Part shown: piece after piece, positions 2,184 through 62,875 of the stretch
Position numbering within the stretch: the first letter of the stretch is position 1
Layout: every line of letters begins with the position of its first letter
Source of the DNA: Candidatus Beckwithbacteria bacterium GW2011_GWC1_49_16
Lineage (GTDB): Bacteria; Patescibacteriota; Microgenomatia; UBA1400; CG1-02-47-37
Assembly: GCA_001029675.1 (NCBI GenBank)
Contig: CP011210.1
Coordinates: forward strand, 948,891 to 1,012,890
Direction: 5' to 3'
Length of the DNA stretch: 64,000 nt
Position numbers and translations under genes: made by a program
The notes under the pieces: model-generated
Seen by the model: only the letters and a program-made list of their open reading frames with translations
Databases searched by the model: none
Told to the model about the DNA's origin: nothing

Positions 2184-2796
2184 AGTCAACCGCGGCGGCT
2201 ACTCGGCTTACTGGCGCCGCTTAAGAACTTTATCCCAGGCGCCGTCGGCCAAGGTGTCTGGTTTAGTCAGTCTGACGATTTTTACGGTGGCGTTTTTTGG
2301 CTTGTTTGCCATTTTACCCACCTTCCGCACCATTGCCGAACTGACCCGGGAGATCGACGATGCCAAGGCAGTCAACAGCAGTTTAGCCAAAAAAATTAAG
2401 GCGCTGGAAAACGCCGAAGAAGTCTACTCCCAAGCCTTGCCGCGGCTAACGCTGATTGACGCGGTGGTGCCCGGCGGGCCGGAGTTTGACCGCTTGGCTT
2501 GGCAGATTCAATGGTTGGGGGCGGACAGCGGAGTGAACATTACCAGCGGCAGCTTCGGCGGTTTTCCTTTGCTTTCGACCAAAGAAAGCAGCGAGCTTAG
2601 CCAAATCGAGATGGAACTGACGGTGCAGGGCGACTACGGGGCGATTAAAAACTTTTTGGCGGATTTGACCAAGATCGACCGGCTGGTGGCAATAAATGAA
2701 GTTAATATTACCAGTAAGGGCAGCCAAGGAGTTCAGGTAGTAACGGCCAACATTCAGGCTTTGGCGTATTTTTTGCCGGGAGGAGAAAATGATTAG
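2167..2796 (+). CDS. pilO: Type IV pilus assembly protein PilO-like
   Basis: Immediately follows pilN with an ATGA overlap. Has an N-terminal TM segment, a coiled coil and a C-terminal globular domain; it occupies the PilO position. Confidence 0.55.
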   Translation: MKLTTRVNRGGYSAYWRRLRTLSQAPSAKVSGLVSLTIFTVAFFGLFAILPTFRTIAELTREIDDAKAVNSSLAKKIKALENAEEVYSQALPRLTLIDAVVPGGPEFDRLAWQIQWLGADSGVNITSGSFGGFPLLSTKESSELSQIEMELTVQGDYGAIKNFLADLTKIDRLVAINEVNITSKGSQGVQVVTANIQALAYFLPGGEND

Positions 2797-3130
2797 CGCT
2801 CTCTACGAAAAAAAGCTCAAGCGCGACATCTTTAGGCTGTCGCTGATGACCTTGATCACGGTGGTAATTTGGATCGGGGTAGCCACCTACAGAGCTTTTA
2901 CTAAAAGCCAAGTTGGCGGCAAGATAAAAAGCCAGATTATACCCTTGACGCCTACTCTTGATCTTGACACAATGGAACTTACAGATCAGAGGCTCAAAGT
3001 TGAACCGGTTAACTGGGACAGTCTGCAACCGGTATTTGAGGTGGTGCCGGAAACGGCTGAGCCGGAAGCCTCGCTAAGCGAGGAAGCCTCGCCGAGCGGG
3101 GAAGCCACCGCCAGCGGCTCTCAACTATGA
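2789..3130 (+). CDS. Small membrane-anchored protein, Ser/Glu/Ala-rich C-terminus (possible PilP-position protein)
   Basis: One N-terminal TM helix. Overlaps the pilO stop and the next gene start, i.e. operon-coupled. Confidence 0.35.
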   Translation: MISALYEKKLKRDIFRLSLMTLITVVIWIGVATYRAFTKSQVGGKIKSQIIPLTPTLDLDTMELTDQRLKVEPVNWDSLQPVFEVVPETAEPEASLSEEASPSGEATASGSQL

Positions 3131-4449
3131 AAAAATTTGGTTTAAGCAAAATTCACTTTCCTACTGCCCTAGGACTATTAATTTTATTGGTCGCCATTGG
3201 CGTGGGGGTGATGTTGGTAAGGAATCGCACCGGGGTGGACACGGAAGCGGAAGGGTCGCTGACACCCAGACAAGTGAGGATCACCAATGTGGCTGATACC
3301 AGTTTTAGCGTATCCTGGATTACCGATCAGGTGGCAAGCGGCCAGATCCGCTATGGCACCGAAGCCAATTCTTTGACTAAAACCGCGGCCGACGAAAGAG
3401 ACCAGCTATCGGGAGACACGGGCAGTTACGAGGTCCACCAAGTAACCTTGAAAAATCTGACGGCAACAACTGCCTATTACTTCAAGTTGGAGTCTGGCGG
3501 AAAACAGTTTGACAACAACGGCAAACCGTTTGAAGTGGCTACCGGGCCGACCCTGGGTGACCCGCCGGCGGCAGACCCGATTTACGGCACGGTTTTAACC
3601 TCGTCGGGGACGGCGGCAGAAGGAGTTTTGGTTTACATTAATGTCGCCAACGCCGGGCCGCTGTCGGCTTTGGCCAAGGCCAACGGCAACTGGGCTTTGA
3701 ATTTATCGACCGCCAGGACGGCAGATTTAGGCAGTTACTTGGCTTACGACACCCAAGCGACGATCGTCAATTTGTTGGCTCAGGGAGGAAAACTAGGGAC
3801 GGCGACGGCGGTGACCACCGCGGCCAACGACAGCCCGGTGCCGGACATTACTCTCGGCCAGTCTTATGACTTTAGGGCTGACGCTGCCAAAACCCAAGAC
3901 CAAACCGCCGAGCCGTTAACCGGCTTTGAACTGTCGCCGATTGCCACTGGCTCGGCCGCGGCGACTGCCTCGGGTGAAGTAACTTTAGAGAATCCCAGTT
4001 TTGACGGCGAAGTCTTAAACGCCACCCAGCCGGCGTTTATCGGCACCGGGCCGCCGGGAACGGTGTTGACGCTCCTGGTGGAGTCGGAAAATACCTATAC
4101 CGGATCGGCGACTGTCGATGCTAGCGGCGAGTGGGAATTTAGCCCCCCGGCGGGGCTGACCCCGGGCGGGCACACGGTGACGATTTCCTATATCGACGAT
4201 AATGGCGACGAGCAGACGCTCACCCGTAACTTTGTCATCGCCGCCGCCGGCGACAGCGACGAGCCGGCAATCACCGCTACCCCTTCGGGGCAAACGGCGT
4301 CGCCGTCACCCGCGGCCAGAACCGGACTGCCGGCAACGGACTCGGGAGTGCCGGAGCCGGGAACAGGAGAGATAACTTTATTAATGCTGATTATGGGTTT
4401 AGGCTTGCTGGCCGGAGGAGCGGTAGTCAAAAGGATAAATTCGCTGTAA
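3127..4449 (+). CDS. Cell-surface protein with an N-terminal signal-anchor, an FN3-like (purple-acid-phosphatase N-terminal type) domain and a C-terminal hydrophobic anchor
   Basis: PRQVRITNVADTSFSVSWITDQVASGQIRYG is an FN3-like motif. The C-terminus LPATDSGVPEPGTGEITLLMLIMGLGLLAGGAVVKRINSL has an LPxT(D/G)-like motif, a TM helix and a basic tail. Confidence 0.5.
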   Translation: MKKFGLSKIHFPTALGLLILLVAIGVGVMLVRNRTGVDTEAEGSLTPRQVRITNVADTSFSVSWITDQVASGQIRYGTEANSLTKTAADERDQLSGDTGSYEVHQVTLKNLTATTAYYFKLESGGKQFDNNGKPFEVATGPTLGDPPAADPIYGTVLTSSGTAAEGVLVYINVANAGPLSALAKANGNWALNLSTARTADLGSYLAYDTQATIVNLLAQGGKLGTATAVTTAANDSPVPDITLGQSYDFRADAAKTQDQTAEPLTGFELSPIATGSAAATASGEVTLENPSFDGEVLNATQPAFIGTGPPGTVLTLLVESENTYTGSATVDASGEWEFSPPAGLTPGGHTVTISYIDDNGDEQTLTRNFVIAAAGDSDEPAITATPSGQTASPSPAARTGLPATDSGVPEPGTGEITLLMLIMGLGLLAGGAVVKRINSL

Positions 4450-4458
4450 TATGAAAAT

Positions 4459-5910
4459 ATGGATGACAGCCTGCTGACGCCCTCAACACCCCCCGCCACT
4501 CCACCGACTCCGGAAGACGAGCAGAAAAAAATTGACGAGCTGGCCCAAAAACTCCCCAGCGACCTGGAAAAACCTCTGCCACCGCCCAAACCACCGGGTC
4601 CGCCGCCGCCGCCGCCCTTCACTCCACCAGTTGCTGGGCCCCCGCCGCCGCCCGACGATAAACCCCTCTCCGGCGACGCCAACGTCCCGCCGGAAGAACC
4701 GGAGATAAAAAGTCCGGGTAAATTTAACCAGGTCGGCAAAGCAGTCAAAAAACACGGCGTTAAAATCGCCGGCGGAGCTTTGGTGGTGACGCTTTTAATC
4801 GGCGGCGTCATCGTCGGGCAAAATTTGGTCCAGCAGAGACAGGTGGTGGAACAGCAGGCAAAATTAGGATGTGATTTCACTAATAACTGTTCAGGTTGTG
4901 AGGGTTGGGCGCCTGGAGACGGCGAATGTTGCCCTGTAGGACCGCCTGATGCTTGTGATGATCCTGGATCGTTAATATGTATTCCTGACCCATATGTTTC
5001 AGAGTGCGTGGAATATCCCTATGCAGATAAATGTGAGGGGGTAAAGGGCTTTACCGGTTATTATTGGAGGCCTGTTGAGTTTGAGATTGACCCCGAAACC
5101 GATCCTCGGTGTAAAGAAAGTCCGCCGCCGGGAGGTGAAGGAAAACACACTGAATGTCGTAATAATGCCTGCGAGATCGTTGACGGTTCGGGACCAATCG
5201 AGTGTACTAGCAACGCCGATTGTGCTCACCCCTCGCCTTCTCCCTCACCGTCGGCGAGTCCGTCTCCTTCTCCGTCATCTTCACCTTCGCCGCAACCGGA
5301 ATTGGCCTGTGTGGATTTGAGCACCTCACCGGAAGAAAACGCCATTAAGCTCGGGGACTCGGTGACTTTGACCTGTCAAGCCAGCTTCTCCTCGGTCAGC
5401 CCGGTAGCCCAATTCCGCTACCAGGTCGGGGGCGGAGCCTTTGTGGAGGATCCGACTAGCTTCCCGATTGACACCGGCACCGGCCAAGCCACTAAAAACA
5501 TCACCATCGATCAAACTGGCACCTGGTTGGCGCAGTGCCGAGTCTGTACCGATTCAACTGCCGCCAGTTGTACCGGCTGGGGCCAGGCGGATGGTATTGG
5601 CGGCCCTAGTTTGCCGCCCCCACCAGAACCGCCCGGGCCGCCCGTGCCAGAACAAGCCAGCTGCGACTTGAGTTTATCTGCCGGCAGCGTTTCCTGCGGC
5701 GGCGGGTCTTGTAGCGGAACACTGCGCTGGACCAACAATGTGGTAGTTAATATCATCCAGACCAACCGGGTAATCGCCGCCAGCCAACAACCGCCCAGTG
5801 GTTCCAAACAAATTTCCGCCAGGACGGCGGCGGATTTGGCAATCAGCTGCCAAACTACCAACGGACAAACGCTGGATACTTTAAGCCTGTCGGGGCAATT
5901 TAATCTTTAA
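4459..5910 (+). CDS. Pro-rich / Cys-rich membrane-anchored surface protein
   Basis: N-terminal poly-Pro tract (PPPKPPGPPPPPPFTPPVAGPPPPP), a TM helix, multiple CxxC-rich modules and an (SP)n linker (PSPSPSPSASPSPSPSSSPSP). Confidence 0.5.
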   Translation: MDDSLLTPSTPPATPPTPEDEQKKIDELAQKLPSDLEKPLPPPKPPGPPPPPPFTPPVAGPPPPPDDKPLSGDANVPPEEPEIKSPGKFNQVGKAVKKHGVKIAGGALVVTLLIGGVIVGQNLVQQRQVVEQQAKLGCDFTNNCSGCEGWAPGDGECCPVGPPDACDDPGSLICIPDPYVSECVEYPYADKCEGVKGFTGYYWRPVEFEIDPETDPRCKESPPPGGEGKHTECRNNACEIVDGSGPIECTSNADCAHPSPSPSPSASPSPSPSSSPSPQPELACVDLSTSPEENAIKLGDSVTLTCQASFSSVSPVAQFRYQVGGGAFVEDPTSFPIDTGTGQATKNITIDQTGTWLAQCRVCTDSTAASCTGWGQADGIGGPSLPPPPEPPGPPVPEQASCDLSLSAGSVSCGGGSCSGTLRWTNNVVVNIIQTNRVIAASQQPPSGSKQISARTAADLAISCQTTNGQTLDTLSLSGQFNL

Positions 5911-5919
5911 CTATAAACT

Positions 5920-6828
5920 ATGCCGGAACAACCAATACCAACACCAACGAGCCAACCCCCCGCCGCTAAACCTGCCTCGCCGGCAGGCGGGGCTTCGGCG
6001 GGTAAAGGGGAAAAGAAATGGCTGTTGTGGGGCCTGATTGGCTTTACGGTCATCTTACTTATCACCGCGGTGGTGTTGTTTTTACAGCTAAGAAAACCGG
6101 CGGAAGAACCGGCACCCAGAGTCAGGCCGACGCCGACTCCGGCGATACCGCCGGTTCAGGAAGTAACCGGAGCTGGCGTCTGCGAAACCACCTTCACCGT
6201 CACCGGGCCGACTTGTACCGGAGTGACGATTGATCCAACGGGTACCAGCGTTTCGGCCGGAGATGACCGGGAACTGACGGCAGAGGTAACCGGCGGGTCG
6301 GGGACGTACACCCATGAGTGGACGATTACCAGCGACGGGGCTGATGAGGGAGATTTAAGCTCAACTACCGCCAACCCGACGACCTGGACGGCGCCTGGCA
6401 GCTTAGATGAGTCTCAATCGTGGACGATTACCGATACTATTACCGATGCCGTAGGAGAAGATATTACTACCAGCTGCAGTGTAATTCTAAACTTTACCGG
6501 TTTGGTCGCCTGTTTTGATACCTGTGATACCGACCTAGACTGCGAAGAGGGCCTAAGTTGTACTGATGTGGCCGGTACTTTCCGCTGTGTCGATGCCAAT
6601 TGTCCCGAAGACGTTGATTGTAGTTGTGCCGACGCTTCGCCGTCGCCTTCACCGTCGGTGTCGCCGTCGCCAGGGGTATCTCCCTCGCCTACTCCGCCAG
6701 GCATAACCCAAGCGTCACCGTCGCCGAGAGTGGCTCAACCCGAGCTGCCCGAAGCCGGCTTCTCGGCGCCCTTGGTCATCGGCGTCGCCGGAGGAATTCT
6801 GTTGGTGATACTCGGTCTGTTGTTCTAA
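5920..6828 (+). CDS. Cys-rich surface protein with N-terminal TM anchor, (SP)n linker and C-terminal LPEAG plus hydrophobic tail
   Basis: TM at residues ~35-55; the CxDxDLDCEEGLSCTD module is paralogous to the previous gene; the C-terminus is ELPEAGFSAPLVIGVAGGILLVILGLLF. Confidence 0.5.
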   Translation: MPEQPIPTPTSQPPAAKPASPAGGASAGKGEKKWLLWGLIGFTVILLITAVVLFLQLRKPAEEPAPRVRPTPTPAIPPVQEVTGAGVCETTFTVTGPTCTGVTIDPTGTSVSAGDDRELTAEVTGGSGTYTHEWTITSDGADEGDLSSTTANPTTWTAPGSLDESQSWTITDTITDAVGEDITTSCSVILNFTGLVACFDTCDTDLDCEEGLSCTDVAGTFRCVDANCPEDVDCSCADASPSPSPSVSPSPGVSPSPTPPGITQASPSPRVAQPELPEAGFSAPLVIGVAGGILLVILGLLF

Positions 6829-6829
6829 A

Positions 6830-8068
6830 TTACTTCCAGGTCGGCAGCCAAAACCAATACTTAACCAAGTTTTTGGGGAGATGGACGGCGGTGTTAATTG
6901 GATAGAAGAAAAGAAAAAGAGCTACGACGATAGTCGTGTAGTAGATGATTAGTAGGCGACCTCGCTGGGGCGAGGTTTTTTGAAAGTCAATTAGCGCCCA
7001 GGCAATAATGATGGTAAGTAAGGATAGGGCCGGTAGGTAGTGGTGTAAGAAAAGAATTCTGGGGGAGAAAGACCAAGGCAACCAAAGAAGAAAATAACTG
7101 ACAAGAAGGTAGATCGTTGATCGTTGATGGCGGTAGAGGGCGTAGATCACGGCCACCAGTCCGCCCCAGAAAACGGCCGGGTTGCCCAGGTTATAAATGT
7201 TGGCGATGGTGTCTTTAGCATAGTCGACGTAAAACCAAACGGGACGAGCCAAAAGCGGCCACGTAAGGGCGGCGGTTTGGTAGTCGTGGGTGGCGGAAAG
7301 ACCGGTTTGGTACCAATAGATTTGCTGGTGGAGGTGGTAAAAGTCGATTAAGCTGTGGCCTTGAGCGAAAAACTGAAGGTAGGAAAGAAAGTAAATGACC
7401 ACAGGAATAATCAGTAAACTGTAAACCGTAATCAGTAACTTTTTAGGATTGGTAATTAAAACTTTTAGTTGGGGTAAAAGAAAAACGGCAAAGATGGGGT
7501 AGATGGCTAGGGCGGAGTGCTTGGTGGCAAGAGCCAAGCCGGTAAAGATGCCGGTGAGATAAAGATGTTTTAAGGTCCGACCTTTAAGAGCACGGTAAAA
7601 AAAGGTCAGCGCCAAAAGCATAAAGGTGGTGACGAAGATGTCGTTCATGGTGATTCTGGACATGGTGAGAGCGAGGCCGTCAAGCGAAAAAAAGGCGGCG
7701 GCCAAAAGCGACAGTTTAGGGTTTTTAAACAGGGCCTGGGCGAGAGTAAAAACCGCCGCCACGGCCAGGGTGCCGAAAAGGGCGCTGGGAAACCGCCAGG
7801 CAAAACTGTTATCGCCCAAAAGCTTGACCGAACCTGCCTGGATCAGTTTGGCCAGCGGCGGGTGAAGCCAATCATAAGCCGTCCCCTTTTCGGGGGGCTC
7901 GTGCCACCATTCGTAGCCGGCCGGATTATTTTCAGCGTGAGCCCGGACGGTGACGACATGATAGACTTCGTCAAAAACGTAGGCCGGCGGGATGCCAAGG
8001 CGGAAGACACGGACAACTAGGGTGAAAGTAAGTATTGCCCAAAATGCCTTGGTGTAAAATGACTTCAT
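6830..8068 (-). CDS. GT-C fold glycosyltransferase, PMT/ArnT-like (GT39/GT83 family)
   Basis: Polytopic membrane protein with a DE motif in the first periplasmic loop (YVFDEVYH). The start is probably the internal Met MKSFYTKAFW, which shares a CATG with the divergent gene at 8067. Confidence 0.6.
   Translation of the reverse strand: MKSFYTKAFWAILTFTLVVRVFRLGIPPAYVFDEVYHVVTVRAHAENNPAGYEWWHEPPEKGTAYDWLHPPLAKLIQAGSVKLLGDNSFAWRFPSALFGTLAVAAVFTLAQALFKNPKLSLLAAAFFSLDGLALTMSRITMNDIFVTTFMLLALTFFYRALKGRTLKHLYLTGIFTGLALATKHSALAIYPIFAVFLLPQLKVLITNPKKLLITVYSLLIIPVVIYFLSYLQFFAQGHSLIDFYHLHQQIYWYQTGLSATHDYQTAALTWPLLARPVWFYVDYAKDTIANIYNLGNPAVFWGGLVAVIYALYRHQRSTIYLLVSYFLLWLPWSFSPRILFLHHYLPALSLLTIIIAWALIDFQKTSPQRGRLLIIYYTTIVVALFLFFYPINTAVHLPKNLVKYWFWLPTWK
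7572..7584. repeat. Solo 13-mer AAGGTCCGACCTT inside the PMT-like glycosyltransferase coding sequence
   Basis: Exact 13/13 match to the repeat terminus, embedded as ...LKGRTLK... in the minus-strand protein. Confidence 0.7.
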
Positions 8069-9545
8069 GAGATTTATTGTAGCACTCACGTTTTGGGTAG
8101 TGGTATTTTGGTTAACTTTTAGCCAGACTATGTTCAGGCAAAATGACGGTGTTTTTGGCGCCTGCTCAAACTGCTGGGGCGATTGGTCGGCCCACACCAG
8201 CTACATGGCCTCGTTTGCCTTTGGGCGAAACTTTCCGCCCAGCTTACCGATTTTGGCCGGCGAAAAATTCAGCTATCCCTTTTTAGTGGATTTGATCACG
8301 GCCGGAGTGGTCAAGCTGGGAGTCGACTGGGTGAAAGCAATGGTGGCGGTCAGCTTAGTCACCGCGGTGGGGTTGGCGGGGGCGGTAATAGCTTTTGGCT
8401 GGAAGCTAACCGGTAAGTTTAAAATCGGGGTGGTAACGGCGCTGGTGTTTTTTTTAAACGGCGGCGTGGGCGAGTGGCAAAATCTTATTTCCTCCCAGGT
8501 CGTCCCCCAGCGGGGGCTGGCTCTGGGGATGACCATGGCCATCTGTGTCTACTGGTTGCTGTGGCAAAAGAAACTTTTTTGGGCGGGGGTGGTGGCAGGT
8601 TTGTTGCCGCTGGTTCACGCCCATTCGTTTATGGCGGTAGTCTTGGTGGCGGGGGGGCTAGGGGGCTGGCGAGTGATCAGAGCAAAAAATAAAACCAAGG
8701 AAATTTCAGCCTGGTTGGCTTTTGCTGTCCCGGCGTTGATTCTGGGCGGGGCGCAGGTGAGGTATTTTTACGCCGGGGTCTTGGGCCAAAACTTTGTCAG
8801 GTGGCAACCAGGCTGGCTGGCTGGCGGCGGCCTTTGGGGCTGGGCCTGGTTTTGGCTCAAAAACGCGGGGCTGGTCTTGGTTTTGGCAACAGCAGGCTGG
8901 TGGCTGGCTCCAAAAAATCTCCAGCGTTTTAGCCTGGTATTCTGGGGGTTGTTTTTTCTGGCTAACTTAGTCGTCTTTCAACCTTGGGATTGGGACAACA
9001 CTAAAATGTTGACCCACTGGCATTTAATGGCTTCGGTGCTGGCGGCCGGGGTAATCGTCAGGTTTTTTGACCATAAACGCTGGTTGGTAAAAATCTTAGG
9101 AGTGGGGGTGTTGGTTGCCAGTGTTTGGTTTGGATCGGTTAAGGTCGTGGCCATTGCCAAAGGGGAAAATCAGTATCGCTTTTGGGATAAAAACCAAATC
9201 GAAGCCGCGGCTTGGGTCAAAGACAATACCCCTCCCCGAGCAGTGTTTTTGACCGCTTCAAACCATGATCACTGGCTGCTTCCACTCACCGGCAGAAAAA
9301 TCGTCATCGGTTACCCGGGCTGGCTGTGGACTTACGGGCTTAACTACAGTCAGCGGGAAAAAGAAGTCGGAGAAATTTTTGGCGGCGGACAGACGGCAGA
9401 CAGCCTAATGGACAAATACCGGGTCGACTACGTCGTTTTAGGGCCGGAAGAAAAAAGACTCGACTCTATCAACCAGGAATATTTCCAAACCAAGTTGACT
9501 GAAGTTTACCAGCTTGAGGACTACCAAGTCTTTGCGGTCAACTAA
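8067..9545 (+). CDS. Polytopic integral membrane protein with C-terminal soluble domain (putative GT-C-type glycosyltransferase)
   Basis: About 11 predicted TM helices followed by a ~130-aa soluble C-terminal domain; sits in the glycosyltransferase neighbourhood. Confidence 0.4.
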   Translation: MRFIVALTFWVVVFWLTFSQTMFRQNDGVFGACSNCWGDWSAHTSYMASFAFGRNFPPSLPILAGEKFSYPFLVDLITAGVVKLGVDWVKAMVAVSLVTAVGLAGAVIAFGWKLTGKFKIGVVTALVFFLNGGVGEWQNLISSQVVPQRGLALGMTMAICVYWLLWQKKLFWAGVVAGLLPLVHAHSFMAVVLVAGGLGGWRVIRAKNKTKEISAWLAFAVPALILGGAQVRYFYAGVLGQNFVRWQPGWLAGGGLWGWAWFWLKNAGLVLVLATAGWWLAPKNLQRFSLVFWGLFFLANLVVFQPWDWDNTKMLTHWHLMASVLAAGVIVRFFDHKRWLVKILGVGVLVASVWFGSVKVVAIAKGENQYRFWDKNQIEAAAWVKDNTPPRAVFLTASNHDHWLLPLTGRKIVIGYPGWLWTYGLNYSQREKEVGEIFGGGQTADSLMDKYRVDYVVLGPEEKRLDSINQEYFQTKLTEVYQLEDYQVFAVN

Positions 9546-10755
9546 GGCTTTTGCGCACAAAAACGGCCCTCAAGCTTAAGATTAACAGGGTAATAAGAGT
9601 CAAATTTCTTAAAAGCATCAGGTAGTAAATCGGCAAGCTTCTGCCGGCAGAGTAAAAATCTTCAAGAAAAGGAGTATAGAGGACGGGGTAAACGTTTTGG
9701 TTTAACAGCAGGGCGACAAGGGTAAGGCCGAAAAGAACAAAGTAGTCGTTTTTGGCTTGCGAGCCGGTGAGGCGGAAAAAGGGAAAAAGGGAAACAAACC
9801 ACCAGAGGTACTGGGCGTGGAGGTTTTTGGAAAAAAGCAAAAACACCAGAATAAGGCAAAAAACCAGAGCGAAGCTTAATTTTTGGCGCAATTTCGGCCG
9901 GCGGTAAAGGTACCAGTAAAAGAGAATAACCGGCAAAAACCAGAAGCGGTTAAACCAGGCAAGGCCGACGGCGTCGACTAAGGGAGAATCGACTCCCCAG
10001 ACGCCGTAGCCGCCAAGAAGAGGCAGGGGCCTGCCAGCGGTCAGAAGCGACCAGCCGGTAAGAAGGCTGCCGGGGACGGATTCGATGCTGACGTATTTTA
10101 GGGCGTGGAAACTTAGTCCGGCGCCGATGTCATCGAGTCTGCCGCCGAGATAAAGGTAAGGAATCAGGCTTAAAAGAATCGCTTGAAGATAGTAAAGTAA
10201 GAAAGCGATCGCGGCTTTGGGGTTCTTTTTGGAATAGGTAAGAAGCATTAAATAGGGCAAGATGATGACGGGGTAGACTTTGACCGCGGTAGCCAGCCCC
10301 AAGACAAAGGCAGACAGCGGCGGCTTTTTTTGGACAAACAAAACCAGGCTTGCCGCCACCAACAAAGCGGCCAGGGCTTCAAAGCGAAACAGAATAATCG
10401 GGCCCAAGAAAACTAGGGCAAACGGAAGGGTGAGTCTTTGGATCAAGGGGCGGCGGCGGGTTAAATAAAGCTGGAGGCCTAAAATGGCTAGAATGATAAT
10501 AAAAAAAGCGTTCAAGTAATTCACATAGAGAAAAGGAGCCAGACCGGCAATAAAAGCGGGTAAGAGCAAAAACAGGCTGGTGGCCGGCAGAATTTCTATG
10601 CCGGGAGCGTCAAAAAAGGTGCGGTATTTAAAAAAGTGCTCGACTCTTAAAAAATAATTCCAGACGTCGACTTCAAGATGCCCCCGCCACAGGGGAATGT
10701 GGGCTTGAAAAAAAATCACGGCTAGAGCTAAGAGAGCCAAGCTTAAATACTTCAT
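9538..10755 (-). CDS. DUF2029/GT87-like polyprenyl-phosphate-sugar-dependent glycosyltransferase
   Basis: Polytopic membrane protein with a ...ATAVKVYPVIILPYL... motif typical of the DUF2029/GT87 family. The start is taken at MKYLSLALLALAV (ATG 10753-10755), which overlaps the stop of the LCP gene. Confidence 0.45.
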   Translation of the reverse strand: MKYLSLALLALAVIFFQAHIPLWRGHLEVDVWNYFLRVEHFFKYRTFFDAPGIEILPATSLFLLLPAFIAGLAPFLYVNYLNAFFIIILAILGLQLYLTRRRPLIQRLTLPFALVFLGPIILFRFEALAALLVAASLVLFVQKKPPLSAFVLGLATAVKVYPVIILPYLMLLTYSKKNPKAAIAFLLYYLQAILLSLIPYLYLGGRLDDIGAGLSFHALKYVSIESVPGSLLTGWSLLTAGRPLPLLGGYGVWGVDSPLVDAVGLAWFNRFWFLPVILFYWYLYRRPKLRQKLSFALVFCLILVFLLFSKNLHAQYLWWFVSLFPFFRLTGSQAKNDYFVLFGLTLVALLLNQNVYPVLYTPFLEDFYSAGRSLPIYYLMLLRNLTLITLLILSLRAVFVRKSLS

Positions 10756-11819
10756 GGCGTCTGATTTTGGTAGAAGAGCTCGTCGATGTAGTCGTGAACA
10801 AGAGTCCAATCGTTGTCGACGGGGATTAAGACCCAAGCACCATAAAGGCTGTCGGGCGGGTGGTAAAGTAGCGGCGGGATGTCTTCGACTTCACTCCCCT
10901 GGTTTAAAATTCCGGTTCTTAAGCTGTCCTGGTCAACCCGGAGCGCCAGCTTGGCCAAATCGGACCAGCTTTTTTGAGGAATGTCGGTTTTGACCGAGGC
11001 AGAAAATATTTGGTAGAGACCTTTAACCTTTTTTAGGCTCAAGAATACCTTCGGGCTCAAGAGTTTTTTCTTGAAGCTCAAGATGACCCGCTGTTGGCGC
11101 TGGGAGCGGGCGTAGTCGGTGCCTTCTTCGCCGGCGGCGTTACGGGACCTAATGTACTTTAAAGCCGTGACGCCGTCCATGACTTGGCTGCCGGCTTTAA
11201 ATTCGACGGTTTGGTAGCGGTCGGATTCGGGCTCGGCGTTTTCTTTGCCAGGGATGGGGTATTTGGCATCGACGAAGCCGTGGGGAACGTCGACGCTGAT
11301 GCCGCCGACGATGTCGATGGCTTTTTCAAAACCGGAAAAATCGAGTAAGGCGGCGTAGTGGACTGGCTGGTTGACGATTTCGGCAACGGCGGCTCGGGAC
11401 AAAGTCAAACCCCCGCCGTCCAATTTGCCCTCGCCGTAAAAGTAGGCGGTGTTTAGTTTGGCTTGGAGCGACTCGACCCAAATGTCCCGGGGCAGCGAGA
11501 CCAAAACGGCGTCGCCGCTTAAAAGTTCAACGGAGATAAGCATGATGCTATCGGTTAACTCTCCCCCGGGGTGGTCGCCGCCGGCGACGCCTAAGAGCAA
11601 AAAGTTCGTCCGGCCCTTGAAACTTTCAAGGCTGGTGACGCTGGGGTTCAAAAAGGAGACGGCGGCGGCCGGGCCGCGGGCAAGATTTTTTAAGCCTCTC
11701 CCCAGGGCCGGGGAAAGGAGGATGACTAAGCTCAAAAAGACAGCGACGGCAAGCAAATAAGTTAGGGGGCGGACCAACCACAGGTGTTTATAAAGGCGGC
11801 GTCTCAATTTGGGGAACAT
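10752..11819 (-). CDS. LCP family (LytR-CpsA-Psr) cell-wall glycopolymer phosphotransferase
   Basis: N-terminal TM helix, then FLLLGVAGGDHPGGELTDSIMLISV...VSLPRDIWV...LNTAYFYG, the LCP core motifs. Confidence 0.75.
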   Translation of the reverse strand: MFPKLRRRLYKHLWLVRPLTYLLAVAVFLSLVILLSPALGRGLKNLARGPAAAVSFLNPSVTSLESFKGRTNFLLLGVAGGDHPGGELTDSIMLISVELLSGDAVLVSLPRDIWVESLQAKLNTAYFYGEGKLDGGGLTLSRAAVAEIVNQPVHYAALLDFSGFEKAIDIVGGISVDVPHGFVDAKYPIPGKENAEPESDRYQTVEFKAGSQVMDGVTALKYIRSRNAAGEEGTDYARSQRQQRVILSFKKKLLSPKVFLSLKKVKGLYQIFSASVKTDIPQKSWSDLAKLALRVDQDSLRTGILNQGSEVEDIPPLLYHPPDSLYGAWVLIPVDNDWTLVHDYIDELFYQNQTP

Positions 11820-13639: not shown

Positions 13640-14785
13640 ATGATTATTAGAGACATTACCGCCAGCGACAGACTCAAGTTTAATGACGCGGTCGGGCATC
13701 CGCTGCAGGCTTTTGAGTGGGGGCAGTTCAGGCAGGAAACCGGAGTTAAAGTGATCAGGAAGGCCATTTTTGAAGGCGATAAATTGATCACTCCGGTTCA
13801 GGTGACCATTCATCAGCTGCCAAAAGTAAATTGGAAAATCGGCTATTTTCCTCGAGGGCCGATGCCGGACGAGGATCAGATGAAGTTATTAACCCAGATC
13901 GGCAAACAAGAAGGACTAATGATGATTAAACTCGAGCCGAATGTGGCAGCGGTGATAAATGACGGCGGGCCAAAAGTTCAGGCCTGGGAGACGGTAAGGA
14001 CGTTTTTGCGGTCTTTCGGGGCCAGGCCGGGAAGGTCGCTTTTTACCGATTATTCGTTTCAGCTGGATTTGACCGAGAGCGAGGAGAAACTTTTAAAAAA
14101 CATGCACTCTAAAACCCGCTACAACATCAGGCTGGCAGAAAGAAAGGGGGTCAAGGTGGCGGTGGATAATTCCCCGGCCAGCTTTGAATGGTTTCTGAAA
14201 CTTCTGTTTGAGCAAACGGTGGTGCGGCAGGGGTTTTATGCCCACACGCCGGATTATTTTAAAAAGCTGTGGGGGGTGTTGGCACCGGCCGGCATTGCCC
14301 ACCTGCTTCGGGCCTATGTGGGCGATAAAACTTTAGCGGTGTTTATGGTGTTTAAGTTTAATAACTGGTTGTATTACCCCTACGGAGCGTCGACGCGGGA
14401 AGAAAAGGAGCTAATGGCGCCAAACTTGGCTATGTGGGAAGCGATTCGCTTTGGCAAAAAGGAGGGGTGTAAGAAGTTTGACCTGTGGGGAGCGCTGTCG
14501 CCCACCCATAACAAAAATGATCCCTGGTACGGCTTTCACCGGTTTAAGGAAGGCTATGGAGGCAAGCTGGTCGGCTTTATCGGCAGCTACGATTTGGTGC
14601 TTGAACCCAAGAAATATTTGGCTTACCGGGCCGGTGACAGCTTACGCTGGGCATACCTTAGGACTGCGGCGGCGGCCAAAAGGATGCCGGGACAACTAAG
14701 CGGAGTTTTCTCTGATGTGCCAGAAAAGGTAGGTGAGGTCGCCAGCGACGCGATCAAGACTTTTGAAAAAGATGACCGATCTTAG
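13640..14785 (+). CDS. FemAB-family peptidoglycan peptide-bridge aminoacyltransferase
   Basis: Length and FemX/FemA-like architecture; the ...SKTRYNIR... core motif is repeated in the adjacent paralogue. Confidence 0.65.
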   Translation: MIIRDITASDRLKFNDAVGHPLQAFEWGQFRQETGVKVIRKAIFEGDKLITPVQVTIHQLPKVNWKIGYFPRGPMPDEDQMKLLTQIGKQEGLMMIKLEPNVAAVINDGGPKVQAWETVRTFLRSFGARPGRSLFTDYSFQLDLTESEEKLLKNMHSKTRYNIRLAERKGVKVAVDNSPASFEWFLKLLFEQTVVRQGFYAHTPDYFKKLWGVLAPAGIAHLLRAYVGDKTLAVFMVFKFNNWLYYPYGASTREEKELMAPNLAMWEAIRFGKKEGCKKFDLWGALSPTHNKNDPWYGFHRFKEGYGGKLVGFIGSYDLVLEPKKYLAYRAGDSLRWAYLRTAAAAKRMPGQLSGVFSDVPEKVGEVASDAIKTFEKDDRS

Positions 14786-15644
14786 GCAAGCTCGGGCTTA
14801 TTGGCGATACATGAAAAGCTTAGGCTGGCGGGTGGTCGACGGCGCCTTTGTCAAAAAACTCCCCTTTTTAGCTTTGAGCCTGGTCAAAATCCAAAGGCCG
14901 GAGCGTCAACCTAATCTTGCCGCGCTGAAAAAATTTCGCCCCATCTACATTAGCTACGAACCAGCGGTCAACCACAAACCCCCTGCCGGTTTCCGCCCGG
15001 GGTCACCCCTTTTGCCGTCAAGAACCATTTGGCTTGATTTGAGAAAGAGCCAGAAAAAACTTTTACAAGAAATGCGCCCCAAAACCCGCTACAATATTAA
15101 AAAATTACGGATTACGGATTACGGATTACGGATTACTCAAGGCAGTCAGCTAAGCGACGATCAACTCGCTGCTTTTTACCAAATTTACCGGGAAAACGCT
15201 AAAAAGCAAAGATTTTGGGGAGCAAGCTTTACTCAACTGAAGTCGTTGGCCACCTGTTTTGGTAAAAAGGCTTATTTAATCATTGCCAGACGGATGGCGC
15301 AGGCAGGGGAAAGCCGAAGGCAGGGTTTGGCTGGCAATGATGTCATTGGCGGGCTTTTAATTCTCGTTCACGACCGCGTGGCGTATTACTCCCACAACGC
15401 GGCCACCAATGAAGGGCGCAGGCTCTTTGTTCCCACCATCTTAACTTGGGAGGCGATTAAGCTAGCCAAAAAACTTGGCTGTCATACTTTTGACTTTGAG
15501 GGTATTGACGACCCTCGCTTCCCGGTCACCCGCAAATGGACGGGGTTTTCTCGCTTCAAAAAAAGCTTTGGCGGTAAGGAGGTCAACTACCCCCAGGCTT
15601 TGGTAAAATGGCAAGTACCGTTGTATCGATACAATAGAACTTAA
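14772..15644 (+). CDS. FemAB-family aminoacyltransferase, second copy
   Basis: Paralogous to the previous gene (RPKTRYNIKK vs SKTRYNIRL; FKKSFGG vs FKEGYGG). The start is taken at the internal Met MTDLRQ to avoid a 53-nt overlap. Contains the heptanucleotide repeat listed separately. Confidence 0.6.
   Translation: MTDLRQARAYWRYMKSLGWRVVDGAFVKKLPFLALSLVKIQRPERQPNLAALKKFRPIYISYEPAVNHKPPAGFRPGSPLLPSRTIWLDLRKSQKKLLQEMRPKTRYNIKKLRITDYGLRITQGSQLSDDQLAAFYQIYRENAKKQRFWGASFTQLKSLATCFGKKAYLIIARRMAQAGESRRQGLAGNDVIGGLLILVHDRVAYYSHNAATNEGRRLFVPTILTWEAIKLAKKLGCHTFDFEGIDDPRFPVTRKWTGFSRFKKSFGGKEVNYPQALVKWQVPLYRYNRT
15104..15136 (+). repeat. Tandem heptanucleotide repeat (ATTACGG)x4.7 inside the femAB-2 coding region
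   Basis: Direct reading: attacgg attacgg attacgg attacgg attac, translated as ...LRITDYGLRITQ... Confidence 0.85.
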
Positions 15645-16102
15645 TGATTGTGGCCTTGGAAAACATCAGGAGTCTTTATAACGTCGGGGCGATTTTAAGA
15701 AGCGCCAGCTTTTTTGGAGTGAGCGAGGTATTTTTGGTGGGGGTAACGGGGTCGAGGAAAATCGGCGGCCAAAGGTGGCTTCACGAAGGGTTAGCCAAAA
15801 CCGCTTTGGGAGCAGAATGGCAGTTACAGATCAAAATCTTGAAAGACAGCCAGAAATTGATTGATCTTGCCAAGAAGAACGGTTTGAAACTGGTAGTAGT
15901 GGAGCAAACGGCGGGGGCAACTCCCCTGTCAAGCTTCCGGCCGGGCAAAAACATGGTCTTGGTCTTTGGCAACGAGGTAACTGGCGTCAGTCAAAAAGTT
16001 TTGGCGGCGGCAGACAAGGTGGTAGAAATCCCCCGACGGGGCAAAAAAACTTCTTTAAATGTCGCCGTGGCGGCCGGAATTGTTTTAAGTCGATTGGGGT
16101 AG
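15644..16102 (+). CDS. SpoU/TrmH-family RNA 2'-O-methyltransferase
   Basis: SPOUT motifs: LYNVGAILRSA...LVFGNEVTGVS...SLNVAVAAGIVL. Confidence 0.8.
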   Translation: MIVALENIRSLYNVGAILRSASFFGVSEVFLVGVTGSRKIGGQRWLHEGLAKTALGAEWQLQIKILKDSQKLIDLAKKNGLKLVVVEQTAGATPLSSFRPGKNMVLVFGNEVTGVSQKVLAAADKVVEIPRRGKKTSLNVAVAAGIVLSRLG

Positions 16103-19100
16103 GTCCTGCCTGTCGGTAGGCAGACCCAGGGGCCAGCAGTGGCGGCGGTATTCGCAGCGAAGACAATGGCGTTGATAGTCGGTGGTGCGGGCAAAGCGGT
16201 GGCGGCGAATGGCTTTCATCGAAGACTTGATGGTGGTCATCAATTTGGCTACCTGATCGTCTGGAATGTCAAAGCTTCGTTTGACAAACTTGGTCTTTTT
16301 TAGGCCGGACTCGACAAAATCCAGCTCGGCTTCTAAGACTTTGTAGCTTAGGCGCGGATCAGCAGCAAAAAGAAGCCTGTAGAAAACCAGCTGACGAAAA
16401 AGGTCGCCCGAAGAAGTTTTGGTCTGGCCCAAAATGTCGTTAGCGCTTTTAGTCGGCCCGGTTTTGTAGTCGGTGACCTTGATGGTCTTTTTGGTTTTAT
16501 CGATTAAATCAACCCGGTCGATTTTGCCGGATAAGGGGATGTCGTCCAGGTAGGGCTTGGAGTAAAAACCGCCAAAGCGCAATTCTACGGCCAACGGCTT
16601 GGTCATCTCTTGATGGTAGTAGCGGTAGTAGGCGGCAAGGGCGTTGACGCCTTTATCAATAAAATCGGCGTGTCTCACCGGAGTTAAAACTTCACTACCT
16701 AAAGCTTTCTTAAACTGGCTTAATAAAAATTCCTTGGCGGGCAAGCGGTTGGTTTTGAGGAAGCGGCGGTAGAATATTTCCAAAGCCTTATGGACGGCGG
16801 TGCCAAAAGATAAGTAGGCTTGTTTGGCCCGGGGGACACGAATGAGGTTGTTTAGCTTGAATTTATAGCTGCAGGCCAGATAGGTGTTTAGGGCCGTAGC
16901 CGAGAGTTTAAAGTCTTTTAAAATGAGGTTGAGAAAATCACTTTCTTTGACGGACGGGGTTACCTGGGGCAGGGGTTTTAAGAGTTTGGTTAGGGCCTGT
17001 TTGGCCTGTTTAGTTAATTGGGGTGAGACGGGTTCAAGGTATTTTTGAGGAATTTCGGAAACAAACATGGAGGGGACGGCTTCTTTGCCGGTGACGGAAC
17101 CCGAGTAGCGGTCGGCGTAAGTAACGCAGACTTTTTTGCGGGCGCGGGTTAGCCCCACGTAAAACAGCCGCCTTTCGTCTTCATTTTTCTCTTTTTTTTG
17201 AAGATCGGTGAAGCTTAAGATCCCTTGGGGAAGTTTGATTAACTCCCGGGTGCGGTTGTTGCCCCATTTTTTATCGATAGCCCGATAAATAAAGACGTAG
17301 TCCCATTCCCTCCCCTTGGCTTTGTGGACGGTAGATAGGGTGACGGCGTTGGTTTTTATGTCCAGATCCTGCTCGACGACGCTCAAACGGTTTTGTTCCA
17401 TCAACTCAAGGGCTTTAATGAAACCAACCAAGTTGAGGCTGTGGTCGGCTTGGTTTAAACTTTTGACCTCGGCAAAAAGCGAGTTTAAACGGTTTAGCTT
17501 TTCGACGCTATCGGGCAAAGTCTCGAGCCAGCTTAAAAACCCCGACTGCTTTAAAACCATTTCGAAAAACTGGCTGAAGGTTTTTTCGGCGTCCAGCTTT
17601 CTCCAATCAGAAAGCTTGCCAATAAACTTAGTGATTTTGGAGCCGGATTTGAGCTTTAATTTTTTAAATTGGGGCGAGAGAATAAAGTCCACCAGATTGG
17701 TGTCGGCTTGGGCGACGGCCCGGGAAAGTTTTAAGATATCCAGGGCGTCTAATTTCAAAAACTGATAGTTTAACAGGGTGAATAAATCAAGGTCGTCACC
17801 CGCGCCTCCGCCGGCGTCGCTGATCACTTTCAAAAGGAGCAAAAACTGGTTTACTACCGGGTCGATTAAGACGTTGCCGCCGCCTTCTATGTCCAAACTC
17901 ACCCCAAACTTGGTGAGCATTTCTGCCAGCGTCCCGGCGTCGGCGTTGTGGCGAAAAAGAACGGCGATACTCTCTGGTTTGGTACCTGATTTGATCAGCC
18001 GGTCTATCTCCCGGGCGAGCCAAAAGGTTTCCAGAGTTTCCGAAGGAAATCTGACCAAAGACAGCTTTTGCTCTTTGAATTTACCTTGGGATTTTAATGT
18101 GGTGGTGGCTTTTTTGAGCTGGAGCTGGTTTTTTTTGATGACGGCGGCGGAGGCATCCAGGATGGTTTGAGTGGAACGGTAGTTTTGCGCCAGTTCAATC
18201 ACTTGGGCTTGGGGGAAAAGATTGTTGAAGGCGATAAAGTTCTCGGTCGAAGCTCCTTGGAAGCGAAAAATTGAATTATGAACTACCACATTGTTGGCTA
18301 CAAAATTGTGGCTAGGCGGTACTTCCAAGTCATAAACATTGATGGTTTTTATTTTCTTCTCGCGTTTAATGACTTTATCGTAGATAACCTTATGCCTTCT
18401 AACCACAGGGAGGTAGTTGCCAACTAAAATATTGCCTGCTTGCATTATTCTTGAGGGGCGGTGCTGTATCCTGGTAGTTCCTAAAGGCGCCTTAATATCA
18501 ATAATTCCAGGGAGTTTTCTCTCAAGCTTTTCGGCAATTTTATACAATTGAGAGAAATCAGTGTTATTTAGTCTGAAGCCTTTACCGATATTTTTATTTC
18601 TAAGCTTAAATCCGAGCTTGTTAAGTTTTTTTATGATTTTTTTGTTTGAAGTTTGGATTCGTAGCTCATGAAGAATGGAGGGGGATTGTAGTAGTCCTTT
18701 TTTATCATATTTAGAGCGATAGTTTCTTGAACACATAACAAGGTTAATTTTGATTCTCCCGTCCCCCAAAGTGGTTGCATCTCGAATATAATGGGGTTGA
18801 TTAAGATTTACCCCGAGATCTTGAGCAAGTATGGCAGCATTTTTTTCTGTATCAAACTCTTGATACAGCTTTTTAAGCCACTTGCCAGTAATTGCGTTAT
18901 TTCTTTCTTGAAAAACAACCGTTGGGATTTTGTAGGTAAGCGATAAAACCATTTCACGGTATCTGGCTTCTGCTTCTGATTTGTGTGCTGACAGGCCAAT
19001 AATTTTATCGGCTCCTGCCTCAATTTTTAGTCTTACTGAAAGGCTTCTTGTAATGCCTAAACGCCAACCCAAGCTTTTTTTATACATGAGGTAAACATAC

Positions 19101-52164: not shown

Positions 52165-52174
52165 AGTTGCCCCT

Positions 52175-52244
52175 AAGGACAGACCTTCCAGCTTCGCTGT
52201 CCCGGCTTGGCCGTTGGCCACGCCTCCTGTTAAGGTCTGGCCTT
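52175..52244. repeat. Degenerate copy of the same repeat family in the valS 5' leader
   Basis: AAGGACAGACCTTcc...cctgttAAGGTCTGGCCTT; it shares cctgttaaggtc with copies a/b and gaccttcc with copy b. Confidence 0.6.
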
Positions 52245-52262
52245 ATTGGCTATAATACTGCC

Positions 52263-62696: not shown

Positions 62697-62700
62697 TGAG

Positions 62701-62870
62701 TTGTCCACTGTTTTTAGGTTATCAACAAGATATTCACAAAAACATCCACCGCCGGAGCGGGGGTTATCAACAGGAAAAAAAGGCAAAGATTTTAGGGGAA
62801 AAATCGATTATAATGAACATATCAAAGCCGCCTACTAAAACTACTACTAATACTAAATAATTGTAGGAGA
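62701..62870. promoter_or_regulatory. Putative oriC: cluster of DnaA-box-like 9-mers followed by an AT-rich tract in the dnaA–dnaN spacer
   Basis: TTGTCCACT (62701), TTATCAACA (62719), ATATTCACA (62730), TTATCAACA (62764), then ...ctactaaaactactactaatactaaataatt... Confidence 0.45.
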
Positions 62871-62875
62871 AGAGA

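Follow-up and report, generated by a model that had tools for sequence, protein, structure and literature searches.

Three consecutive genes, here called P1, P2 and P3, lie downstream of the type IV pilus alignment genes pilN and pilO in a stretch of 64,000 nucleotides (nt) of Candidatus Beckwithbacteria bacterium GW2011_GWC1_49_16 (an uncultivated, ultra-small member of the Patescibacteria, Microgenomates; contig CP011210.1), to which we refer as the window. They make up the second half of a six-gene operon, pilN-pilO-orf113-P1-P2-P3, and comparison with related loci makes it very probable that this pilN/pilO-linked operon is conserved and encodes envelope proteins. We tentatively propose that P1, P2 and P3 encode pilus-associated envelope proteins that are held in the membrane by their N-terminal helices, and that P1 and P3 are additionally anchored to the cell wall by a sortase; taken as a whole, this proposal falls just short of being probable. 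All of the evidence is genomic, from sequence and context. The genes of the operon, with positions counted from the first nucleotide of the window, are:

1626-2183, + strand: pilN, bitopic type IV pilus alignment protein (Pfam PF05137, E 9.8e-10, 38.8 bits versus a cut-off of 22.8)
2167-2796, + strand: pilO, bitopic type IV pilus alignment protein (Pfam PF04350, E 3.2e-10, 40.7 bits versus a cut-off of 22)
2789-3130, + strand: orf113, small single-helix membrane protein of 113 amino acids (aa) with an acidic, Ser-rich tail
3127-4449, + strand: P1, 440 aa
4459-5910, + strand: P2, 483 aa
5920-6828, + strand: P3, 302 aa

The genes from pilN to P1 overlap at each junction (17 nt for pilN/pilO, 8 nt for pilO/orf113 and 4 nt for orf113/P1), and gaps of 9 nt each separate P1 from P2 and P2 from P3. 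Thus, the six genes look like a single translationally coupled unit, and a convergent gene of the PMT family, at 6830, closes it. Scans for promoters and terminators gave consensus-level matches only, with terminator-like sites near the shuffle expectation. All six products are single-pass membrane proteins and, because basic residues precede the first helix, their N-termini are probably inside. PilN keeps the N-terminal INLLP motif (aa 10-14, nt 1653-1667), by which PilN binds PilM in type IV pilus systems, and its orthologues in two related loci (L003 and L004) are 41-49% identical. An initial annotation of this DNA had recognized three consecutive plus-strand open reading frames (ORFs) downstream of pilN-pilO. 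Their coordinates proved exact and PilN and PilO pass the Pfam thresholds; orf113, between pilO and P1, had been overlooked.

The arrangement is shared by many related loci, which are numbered here with the prefix L. The order murJ (divergent)-rpsT-pilN-pilO-small ORF-P1-P2-P3 occurs in the window and in L003, L004, L007, L008, L013, L016 and L019, and its P1-proximal part also in L006, L009, L011, L012, L015 and L017. In the window rpsT (1315-1605) lies directly 5' of pilN, and it precedes pilN in all loci, while pilO is kept in every related locus. Gene order is maintained across Microgenomates in each related locus that is long enough, even at 36-45% P1 identity (45% in the Woesebacteria-like L003 and 38% in the more distant L004). 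This bears out the earlier view of surface or envelope proteins with a genetic link to pilN-pilO. A gene at the position of orf113 is present in 13 loci, with W28, L53 and R68 invariant, and orf113 has no match in Pfam or NCBIfam. A BLASTP hint that it could be a truncated PilO or PilN paralogue (E 0.001) was not upheld, since hhalign against PilO gave a probability of 19% and aligned the helix only. The type IV pilus locus of the Microgenomates genome Ch65 is listed with PilM and without PilN or PilO (PMC7143001), and this fits an organization in which pilN and pilO are encoded apart, together with orf113, P1, P2 and P3.

P1, P2 and P3 are real genes. At E ≤ 1e-3, P1 has 149 homologues (among the matches listed, E 1e-77 to 1e-278 and 36-100% identity over near-full length), P3 has 46 and P2 only six. 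The nearest named relatives of all three are Beckwithbacteria proteins, and an identical P1 protein is also encoded on DNDB01000003.1 of GCA_003484145.1 and on one groundwater metagenome contig. An antisense ORF of 230 aa (4188-4880, - strand) lies opposite the 3' end of P1 and the poly-Pro tract of P2. Its translation is Gly- and Ser-rich (38 G and 37 S of 231) and the plus strand is 49% C over 4560-4700; given this composition, and given that the overlapping genes P1 and P2 have conserved homologues, we agree with the initial annotation that it is spurious.

Few parts of P1, P2 and P3 are conserved as well as their N-terminal helices. Such conservation is unusual for cleaved signal peptides, and it suggests that the helices are retained as anchors that pack on each other and on PilN and PilO. 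In P1 the helix (HFPTALGLL..., aa 10-34) has H10, F11, P12, T13, L15, G16, L17 and L20 invariant across 12 Beckwithbacteria P1 proteins. The P3 helix (KKWLLWGLIGFT..., aa 32-57) is likewise highly conserved, with K33, L39, F42, I45, L46, T49, A50, L53 and Q56 invariant in 26 relatives, and is followed by a Pro-rich spacer. The N-terminal signal-anchor that had been assigned to all three proteins is present in P1 (helix 11-34) and P3 (33-57) but not at the N-terminus of P2, whose helix (aa 103-120) comes after about 95 Pro-rich residues. This leading segment of P2 (aa 1-96) starts with MDD (MD[DN] in the family), varies in length across relatives and is presumably cytoplasmic; the helix and an RQVVE juxtamembrane motif together span aa 97-135.

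At the other end of P1 and P3 are the sequences that we regard as candidate sorting signals:

4318-4446, + strand: P1 C-terminal signal, R398-T-G-LPATD(401-405)-SG-VPEPG(408-412)-TGE-helix(416-434)-KR-INSL
6745-6759, + strand: LPEAG of the P3 C-terminal signal (aa 276-280), then FSA and a helix of 19 hydrophobic residues (aa 284-302) that runs to the last residue

The description of P3 as ending in LPEAG and a hydrophobic tail was thus correct. For P1, which had been described as LPATD-x9-TM-KR, the LPATD, the helix and the KR are all in place and the spacer is 10 residues rather than 9. The P1 family consensus is R-T-x-[MLQ]-P-[SA]-T-x-x-G-[VI]-P-x-x-G, then a helix, then K or R. Across 113 homologues, selected by an anchoring regular expression, the commonest residues of the tail read [SA][GA]-R-T-S-M-P-S-T-[ED]-S-G-V-P-x-P-G-x4-helix-K, with R in 100%, T in 88%, P in 100%, [SA] in 100%, T in 99%, G in 99%, [VI] in 96%, P in 98% and G in 100%; the charged end, KR in the window, is represented by K after the helix in 82%. 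Among 28 P1 relatives P402 and G412 are invariant, and R398, T404, G407 and P409 are each present in at least 90%. Seen against this conservation, the LPATD of the window is part of an element, [MLQ]-P-[SA]-T-x-x-G, that the family conserves. Judged by distance from the helix (four residues), it is VPEPG of P1 and not LPATD that corresponds to the LPxAG of P3. This second element reads MPITG in the distant relative L004 and VPDSG in some other relatives, and a P1-type tail in L018 has the first element only (LPPTPVSG-VETP-helix).

In the 26 P3 relatives the L, P, A and G of LPxAG are invariant, as are a Pro four residues later and several residues of the helix (G288, G292, L294 and L300). All of them lack a basic tail, ending ...GLLF or ...LAL. 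The C-terminal motifs of P1 and P3 are evidently under strong constraint and not due to chance. Candidate motif peptides of the two tails are QPELPEAGFS, RTGLPATDSGVPEPGTG, QPELPEAGFSAP and ARTGLPATDSGVPEPGTGE. LPXTG has LPX[AS]G as accepted variants, and LPxAG is documented as a minor sortase A motif (PMC2657157, PMC3436756). On balance, the tails of P1 and P3 could equally well be or not be sortase signals.

Similar tails recur on other proteins. They are found on a cohesin-domain protein of L003 (…EELPEAGIPTPTFF…, ELPEAG), on a 284-aa IPVTG protein and a P3-like LPNAG protein of L018, and on P0185, where the same pentapeptide-plus-helix tail is attached to an unrelated ectodomain. The pattern [LVIMQ]PxxG plus a terminal helix was restricted, within 447 stop-to-stop ORFs (90 aa or longer) of the related loci, to P1, to P3 and P3-like proteins of the cluster and to one cohesin protein. 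When a 32-position profile of the P3 tail was compared with 1.84 billion representative proteins, 31 matched at E ≤ 1e-3, all at the extreme C-terminus.

The cohesin protein of L003 has a setting of its own. Positions 3527-4902 of that locus hold two cohesin-domain genes, one with the ELPEAG-helix tail, flanked by glycoside hydrolase genes of the GH39/GH42 type. In L018 a P2-like protein of 686 aa (589-2649) ends, by eye, in dockerin-like repeats. These are hints of a cohesin-dockerin surface assembly in Microgenomates.

The ectodomains of the three proteins differ in kind. The initial annotation described all of them as Cys-rich, but the cysteine counts are 0 for P1, 23 for P2 and 11 for P3; the (SP)n and Pro-rich linkers that it noted are present. 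P1 and P3 were modelled with AlphaFold2 (AF2). The P1 model, built on 28 homologues, has a mean predicted local distance difference test score (pLDDT) of 80.8 and can be divided as follows:

aa 45-140: FN3-like domain (Pfam Pur_ac_phosph_N, E 1.4e-12)
aa 150-250: second beta-sandwich, directly abutting the FN3-like domain (AF2 model)
between the second beta-sandwich and the BIg domain: disordered linker (AF2 model)
aa 290-372: BIg/Big_13 domain (Pfam Big_13, E 8.8e-13)
aa 375-409: disordered region that bears the motifs, followed by the C-terminal helix (AF2 model)

Residues 295-369 pass the gathering threshold of Big_13 (PF19077; 49.1 bits versus 27), and this domain has a profile match in the Protein Data Bank (PDB) to Salmonella SiiE (2yn3, E 7.5e-8). 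Foldseek aligned the P1 model with strings of beta-sandwiches, the best being RTX-adhesin extender and FN3 arrays, which indicates that P1 carries a stalk of three beta-sandwich domains. In databases it is annotated merely as 'Ig-like domain-containing'. For both the P1 and the P3 model, Foldseek returned generic Ig, FN3 and BIg folds only, with no pilus-specific match.

In P2 the N-terminus, the helix and an Ig-like domain are common to relatives, and the remainder is variable. Beyond the membrane it comprises:

aa 138-256: Cys-rich ectodomain, lineage-specific and replaced in relatives
aa 257-280: (SP)n linker
aa 281-377: conserved Ig-like domain, ending QCRVC...SCTGWGQA (W-x-VQCRVC...SCT-x-WG-x-AN in the family)
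aa 401-483: extra C-terminal domain, preceded by a Pro linker

The number of cysteines in P2 is odd, and five of them are in the conserved Ig-like domain. One relative from another metagenome (P0123) carries a Hint domain (PF01079, E 1.8e-9) in the slot of the variable ectodomain, which points to module swapping at this position. The C-terminus of P2 has no sorting signal. Neither P2 nor P3 matches a Pfam or NCBIfam family, and sequence searches of the PDB with the two proteins gave nothing significant.

P3 was modelled on 26 homologues and has two recognizable parts between its membrane-proximal spacer and its tail:

aa 88-192: Ig-like domain (AF2, pLDDT >90), optional across the family
aa 198-236: eight-cysteine module, CFDTCDTDLDCEEGLSCTDVAGTFRCVDANCPEDVDCSC (AF2, pLDDT 72-89)

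The module has the spacing C-x3-C-x5-C-x5-C-x8-C-x4-C-x5-C-x-C, occurs in one to three copies across the P3 family and is separated from the C-terminal tail by an SP linker (SP or TP in the family). Structure prediction of the Cys-rich modules, suggested at the outset, thus yielded a model of this one. A hidden Markov model (HMM) built from 61 P3-family copies matches the P3 orthologue in every locus that reaches this gene (E 3e-11 to 6e-18). The initial annotation had placed paralogous modules of the CxDxDLDCEEGLSCTD type in two of the proteins, but we find the module in P3 only. The HMM has no match to the window P2 at E ≤ 10 even with filters off (--max), and BLASTP of P2 against P3 gave nothing at E ≤ 0.01. 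Paralogy of the Cys-rich modules of P2 and P3 was accordingly ruled out, a marginal HMM match (E 0.0019) being confined to the P2 orthologue of L013.

In 50 of 52 full-length P3-family proteins the cysteine count is odd (9, 11, 17, 19, 25 or 27, that is, one plus eight per module plus two for the Ig-like domain), and a C-x3-4-F-x-[VIL] motif is found in 51 of the 52, in most cases some 25-30 residues beyond the N-terminal helix (VCETTFTV in the window P3, with C88; aa 88-94, nt 6181-6201). Together, these two features suggest a single conserved, unpaired extracellular cysteine in the P3 family. A disulfide between P2 and P3 is possible. MdbA-like thiol-disulfide oxidoreductases and VKOR are enriched in the Candidate Phyla Radiation (CPR; PMC6744442), and this fits disulfide-rich ectodomains. 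In L019 a natural P2::P3 fusion (P0182, 8001-9074) has a P2-type N-terminus (MDDNGLQPP...) and helix, 8-Cys modules of the P3 type and an LPQAG tail. Because this one gene fills the P2/P3 slot, after murJ-rpsT-pilN-pilO-orf93-P1, P2 and P3 probably act at the same place.

The operon is set among genes for envelope biogenesis. Around it, the window encodes:

1 to ~1309, - strand: murJ
6830-8197, - strand: PMT-family protein O-mannosyltransferase, convergent with P3 (Pfam PMT_2, PMT and PMT_4TMC)
8067-9545 and 9538-10836: polytopic GT-C-like proteins
10752-11819: LCP ligase (Pfam LytR_cpsA_psr)
6830-11819 and 13640-15644: stretches of the envelope-biogenesis island, which also includes two FemAB genes

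From the PMT gene onward, genes for GT-C glycosyltransferases and an LCP ligase form a conserved run, with the same neighbours in L003, L004 and L018. Further downstream the order of genes varies and the functions are always those of the envelope (PMT, other GT-C, LCP ligase, then UvrD and FemAB); the island of L004 has a TMEM260-like O-mannosyltransferase. These surroundings suggest that the SP/TP linkers are O-glycosylated.

Elsewhere in the window, a 1366-aa helicase-nuclease of the UvrD/AddA type (16085-20185, - strand; UvrD-helicase, UvrD_C and PDDEXK_1) contains an intein (Intein_splicing/Hint) at about aa 277-637. The window ends with dnaA and dnaN (61293-63997) and the cumulative GC skew climbs steadily over 1-12 kb, so it is probably next to the replication origin. 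ARAGORN called a tRNA-Gly(gcc) of 96 nt (53237-53332, - strand) within the ORF of a class I aminoacyl-tRNA synthetase (52167-54494), and its length and position suggest a false positive.

A mechanism can be sketched in which the operon would encode the PilN/PilO alignment pair and four lineage-specific single-pass proteins, the latter making up the outward-facing side of the machine in a cell that has no outer membrane. The N-terminal helices of P1, P2 and P3, if retained as anchors, would assemble with those of PilN and PilO, and the ectodomains would project through the wall of this single-membrane cell. P1 would contribute the stalk of three beta-sandwich domains, and P2 and P3 would contribute variable disulfide-rich modules. 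The C-terminal signals of P1 and P3, of the type [LVIM]-P-x-[TAP]-G, could be cut by the housekeeping sortase reported for the lineage and joined to peptidoglycan. P1 and P3 may then bridge membrane and wall around the base of the type IV pilus, or the variable modules of P2 and P3 may be displayed as adhesins. The adjacent PMT-type O-mannosyltransferases and the LCP ligase could plausibly act on the Ser/Thr/Pro linkers.

Several results weigh against this proposal, most of them concerning the sortase. The LPXTG_anchor model (TIGR01167) scores 12.7 bits on the window P1, against a cut-off of 15.9, and stays below the cut-off in every member, with weak matches (E 0.16) in one of 28 P1 and two of 26 P3 proteins. 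P1 has two candidate motifs, LPATD and VPEPG, and neither is LPXTG; the P3 family lacks the charged tail that is part of the classical sorting signal. By Pfam, no sortase (PF04203) or Exosortase_EpsH was found among the 46 ORFs of at least 150 aa in the window, and tblastn with Staphylococcus aureus SrtA together with a scan for the motif GH...TLxTC found no sortase in the window and 17 related loci (~300 kb). This negative says little about the genome as a whole, the rest of which was outside the search. A sortase family is reported to occur almost throughout Microgenomates (Meheust et al. 2019, PMC6744442), and the complete Microgenomates genome Ch65 encodes a sortase (PMC7143001). The sortase or exosortase sought after the initial annotation was thus not found in the DNA searched and is, for sortase, reported for the lineage; the non-canonical sorting motif that it proposed has in its favour strong conservation and, for LPxAG, a documented precedent, but no match above the cut-off of the LPXTG model. 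Taken together, these observations do not refute the initial annotation, since similar tails do recur on other secreted proteins and a sortase is reported for the lineage. Moreover, the sequence of the P3 C-terminal helix is highly conserved, which could mean that it is a permanent second membrane anchor. P1 and P3 would then be double-anchored, their ectodomains forming loops and their motifs serving as structural or interaction elements with no sortase involved. Besides the invariant helix residues and the missing basic tail of P3, the failure of the LPXTG model and the empty sortase searches, such an arrangement is favoured by the tail profile, which is largely family-specific: its matches belong mostly to the P3 family in the broad sense, so that the evidence for a proteome-wide sorting signal comes from few cases. 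We nevertheless consider it fairly unlikely. The pentapeptide is invariant although the linkers that flank it are hypervariable, and unrelated ectodomains (the L003 cohesin protein, P0185 and the 284-aa IPVTG protein of L018) bear the same tail of pentapeptide plus helix, as is typical of a portable sorting signal; the reported near-ubiquity of sortase in the lineage also speaks against a double anchor. A transpeptidase of another kind is very improbable. The tail of the window P1, VPEPG-x4-helix-KR, superficially resembles PEP-CTERM, as the initial annotation remarked of VPEP, and some relatives have VPDSG, so that an exosortase or archaeosortase, a polytopic membrane transpeptidase, might read VPEP/VPxxG with the helix and basic residues. 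However, the E of this motif is present in 27% of P1 homologues and P occupies its fourth position in 77%. No PEP-CTERM model is significant, the models giving single sub-threshold matches (one of 28 members per model, E 0.1-0.25), and Exosortase_EpsH was missing from the window ORFs of at least 150 aa. PEP-CTERM systems are known from bacteria that have an outer membrane, and the organism appears to be single-membraned.

The second point at issue is the connection to the pilus, which comes from genomic context alone. No pilM, pilB, pilC, pilD or pilin domain was matched by Pfam among the ORFs of at least 150 aa in the 64-kb window, and the neighbours (murJ, PMT, LCP and FemAB) suit general envelope biogenesis equally well. 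P1, P2 and P3 could therefore be wall-anchored adhesins or envelope glycoproteins of a general sort, with no role in pilus assembly, that adjoin pilN-pilO through a conserved envelope-biogenesis island. The flanking genes are of this kind in every locus, the fold of P1 resembles adhesin extender domains, and the hypervariable ectodomain of P2 is what would be expected of a surface that binds a host or ligand. Even so, we judge this unlikely in the form stated. The stop/start overlaps from pilN through P1 indicate co-translation; the order after pilO is invariant over deep divergence, whereas genes farther downstream are shuffled; and the conservation of the transmembrane helices points to a defined complex in the membrane. 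Taken by itself, a role of the proteins in the pilus or its assembly, as opposed to general adhesion, is possible but doubtful.

A role at the pilus would matter for the biology of these organisms. Type IV pili are seen as central to the attachment of ultra-small CPR bacteria to host cells and to their life at the expense of these hosts. There is no secretin in the CPR, and the lineage-specific set linked to pilN-pilO offers concrete candidates for the missing part of the machine in this single-membrane envelope. We would go further only speculatively. Microgenomates, and perhaps other CPR bacteria, might build the envelope-crossing part of the type IV pilus from orf113, P1, P2 and P3, with P1 and P3 both anchored in the membrane by their conserved N-terminal helices and covalently fixed to peptidoglycan by a non-canonical sortase signal (LPxAG without a charged tail in P3 and PST-x2-G-VPxxG in P1), as a wall-tethered counterpart of PilP/PilQ/TsaP, and with the hypervariable P2 and P3 modules, possibly disulfide-linked by way of the conserved unpaired cysteine, as host-contact surfaces. 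In this extended form the proposal is improbable. A specific sorting motif is nonetheless offered for the Microgenomates sortase, whose substrates we did not find described in the literature searched; those searches returned no description of CPR sortase motifs or of this gene cluster. If P1, P2 and P3 are simply wall-anchored adhesins, they are still likely to be host-interaction surfaces, given the hypervariable ectodomain of P2. The building blocks (Ig-like stalks, sortase-like tails, PilN and PilO) are known, and it is their combination that appears new: pilus alignment genes with candidate wall-anchored proteins, LPxAG without a charged end, and conserved N-terminal anchors.

In bacteria with an outer membrane, the PilP lipoprotein and the PilQ secretin follow pilO in the PilMNOPQ set of type IVa pili. 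Here too, envelope-spanning proteins are encoded, and probably co-transcribed, right after pilN-pilO; each has its anchor in the cytoplasmic membrane and would reach outward. Differences from that set are the lack of an adjacent pilM, the lack of an outer membrane and the covalent nature of the wall attachment that we propose. None of orf113, P1, P2 and P3 has a Pfam or NCBIfam likeness to PilP or PilQ, and the models of P1 and P3 have no likeness to them in fold. PilQ is absent from the CPR (PMC6744442).

As candidate sortase substrates, the proteins may be compared with the sortase A substrates of the LPxAG type, two from S. aureus and two from S. uberis (SUB0207 and SUB0241). Like these, P3 has L-P-x-A-G after a low-complexity linker and before a C-terminal hydrophobic segment, and the host lineage is likewise reported to have a sortase. 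They differ in that P3 has no basic tail, both the P1 and the P3 family remain below the TIGR01167 cut-off, the motif of P1 is R-T-x-M-P-S-T-x-x-G-V-P-x-x-G rather than LPXTG, and a conserved transmembrane helix takes the place of an ordinary signal peptide at the N-terminus of P1 and P3. The stalk of P1 recalls the giant RTX adhesins, Salmonella SiiE and the Marinomonas ice-binding adhesin, in that its Big_13 domain matches SiiE and its model aligns to strings of beta-sandwiches. P1, in contrast, has only three domains, has its membrane anchor at the N-terminus and is no substrate of type I secretion; it scores 42.9 bits against the Ca_tandemer model, below the cut-off of 50.

GspA of Actinomyces oris is reportedly a surface glycoprotein that a sortase anchors after an LCP enzyme has glycosylated it. 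There is no sequence relationship, and glycosylation in Beckwithbacteria is suggested by the neighbourhood, but here as well candidate sortase substrates with Ser/Thr/Pro-rich linkers are encoded beside genes of the LCP family and of the GT-C type. Finally, the cell-surface cohesins that anchor scaffoldins, such as ScaE of Ruminococcus flavefaciens, carry sortase signals. Although P1, P2 and P3 of the window have no cohesin or dockerin domain, the cohesin-domain protein of L003 has the same ELPEAG-helix tail as P3.

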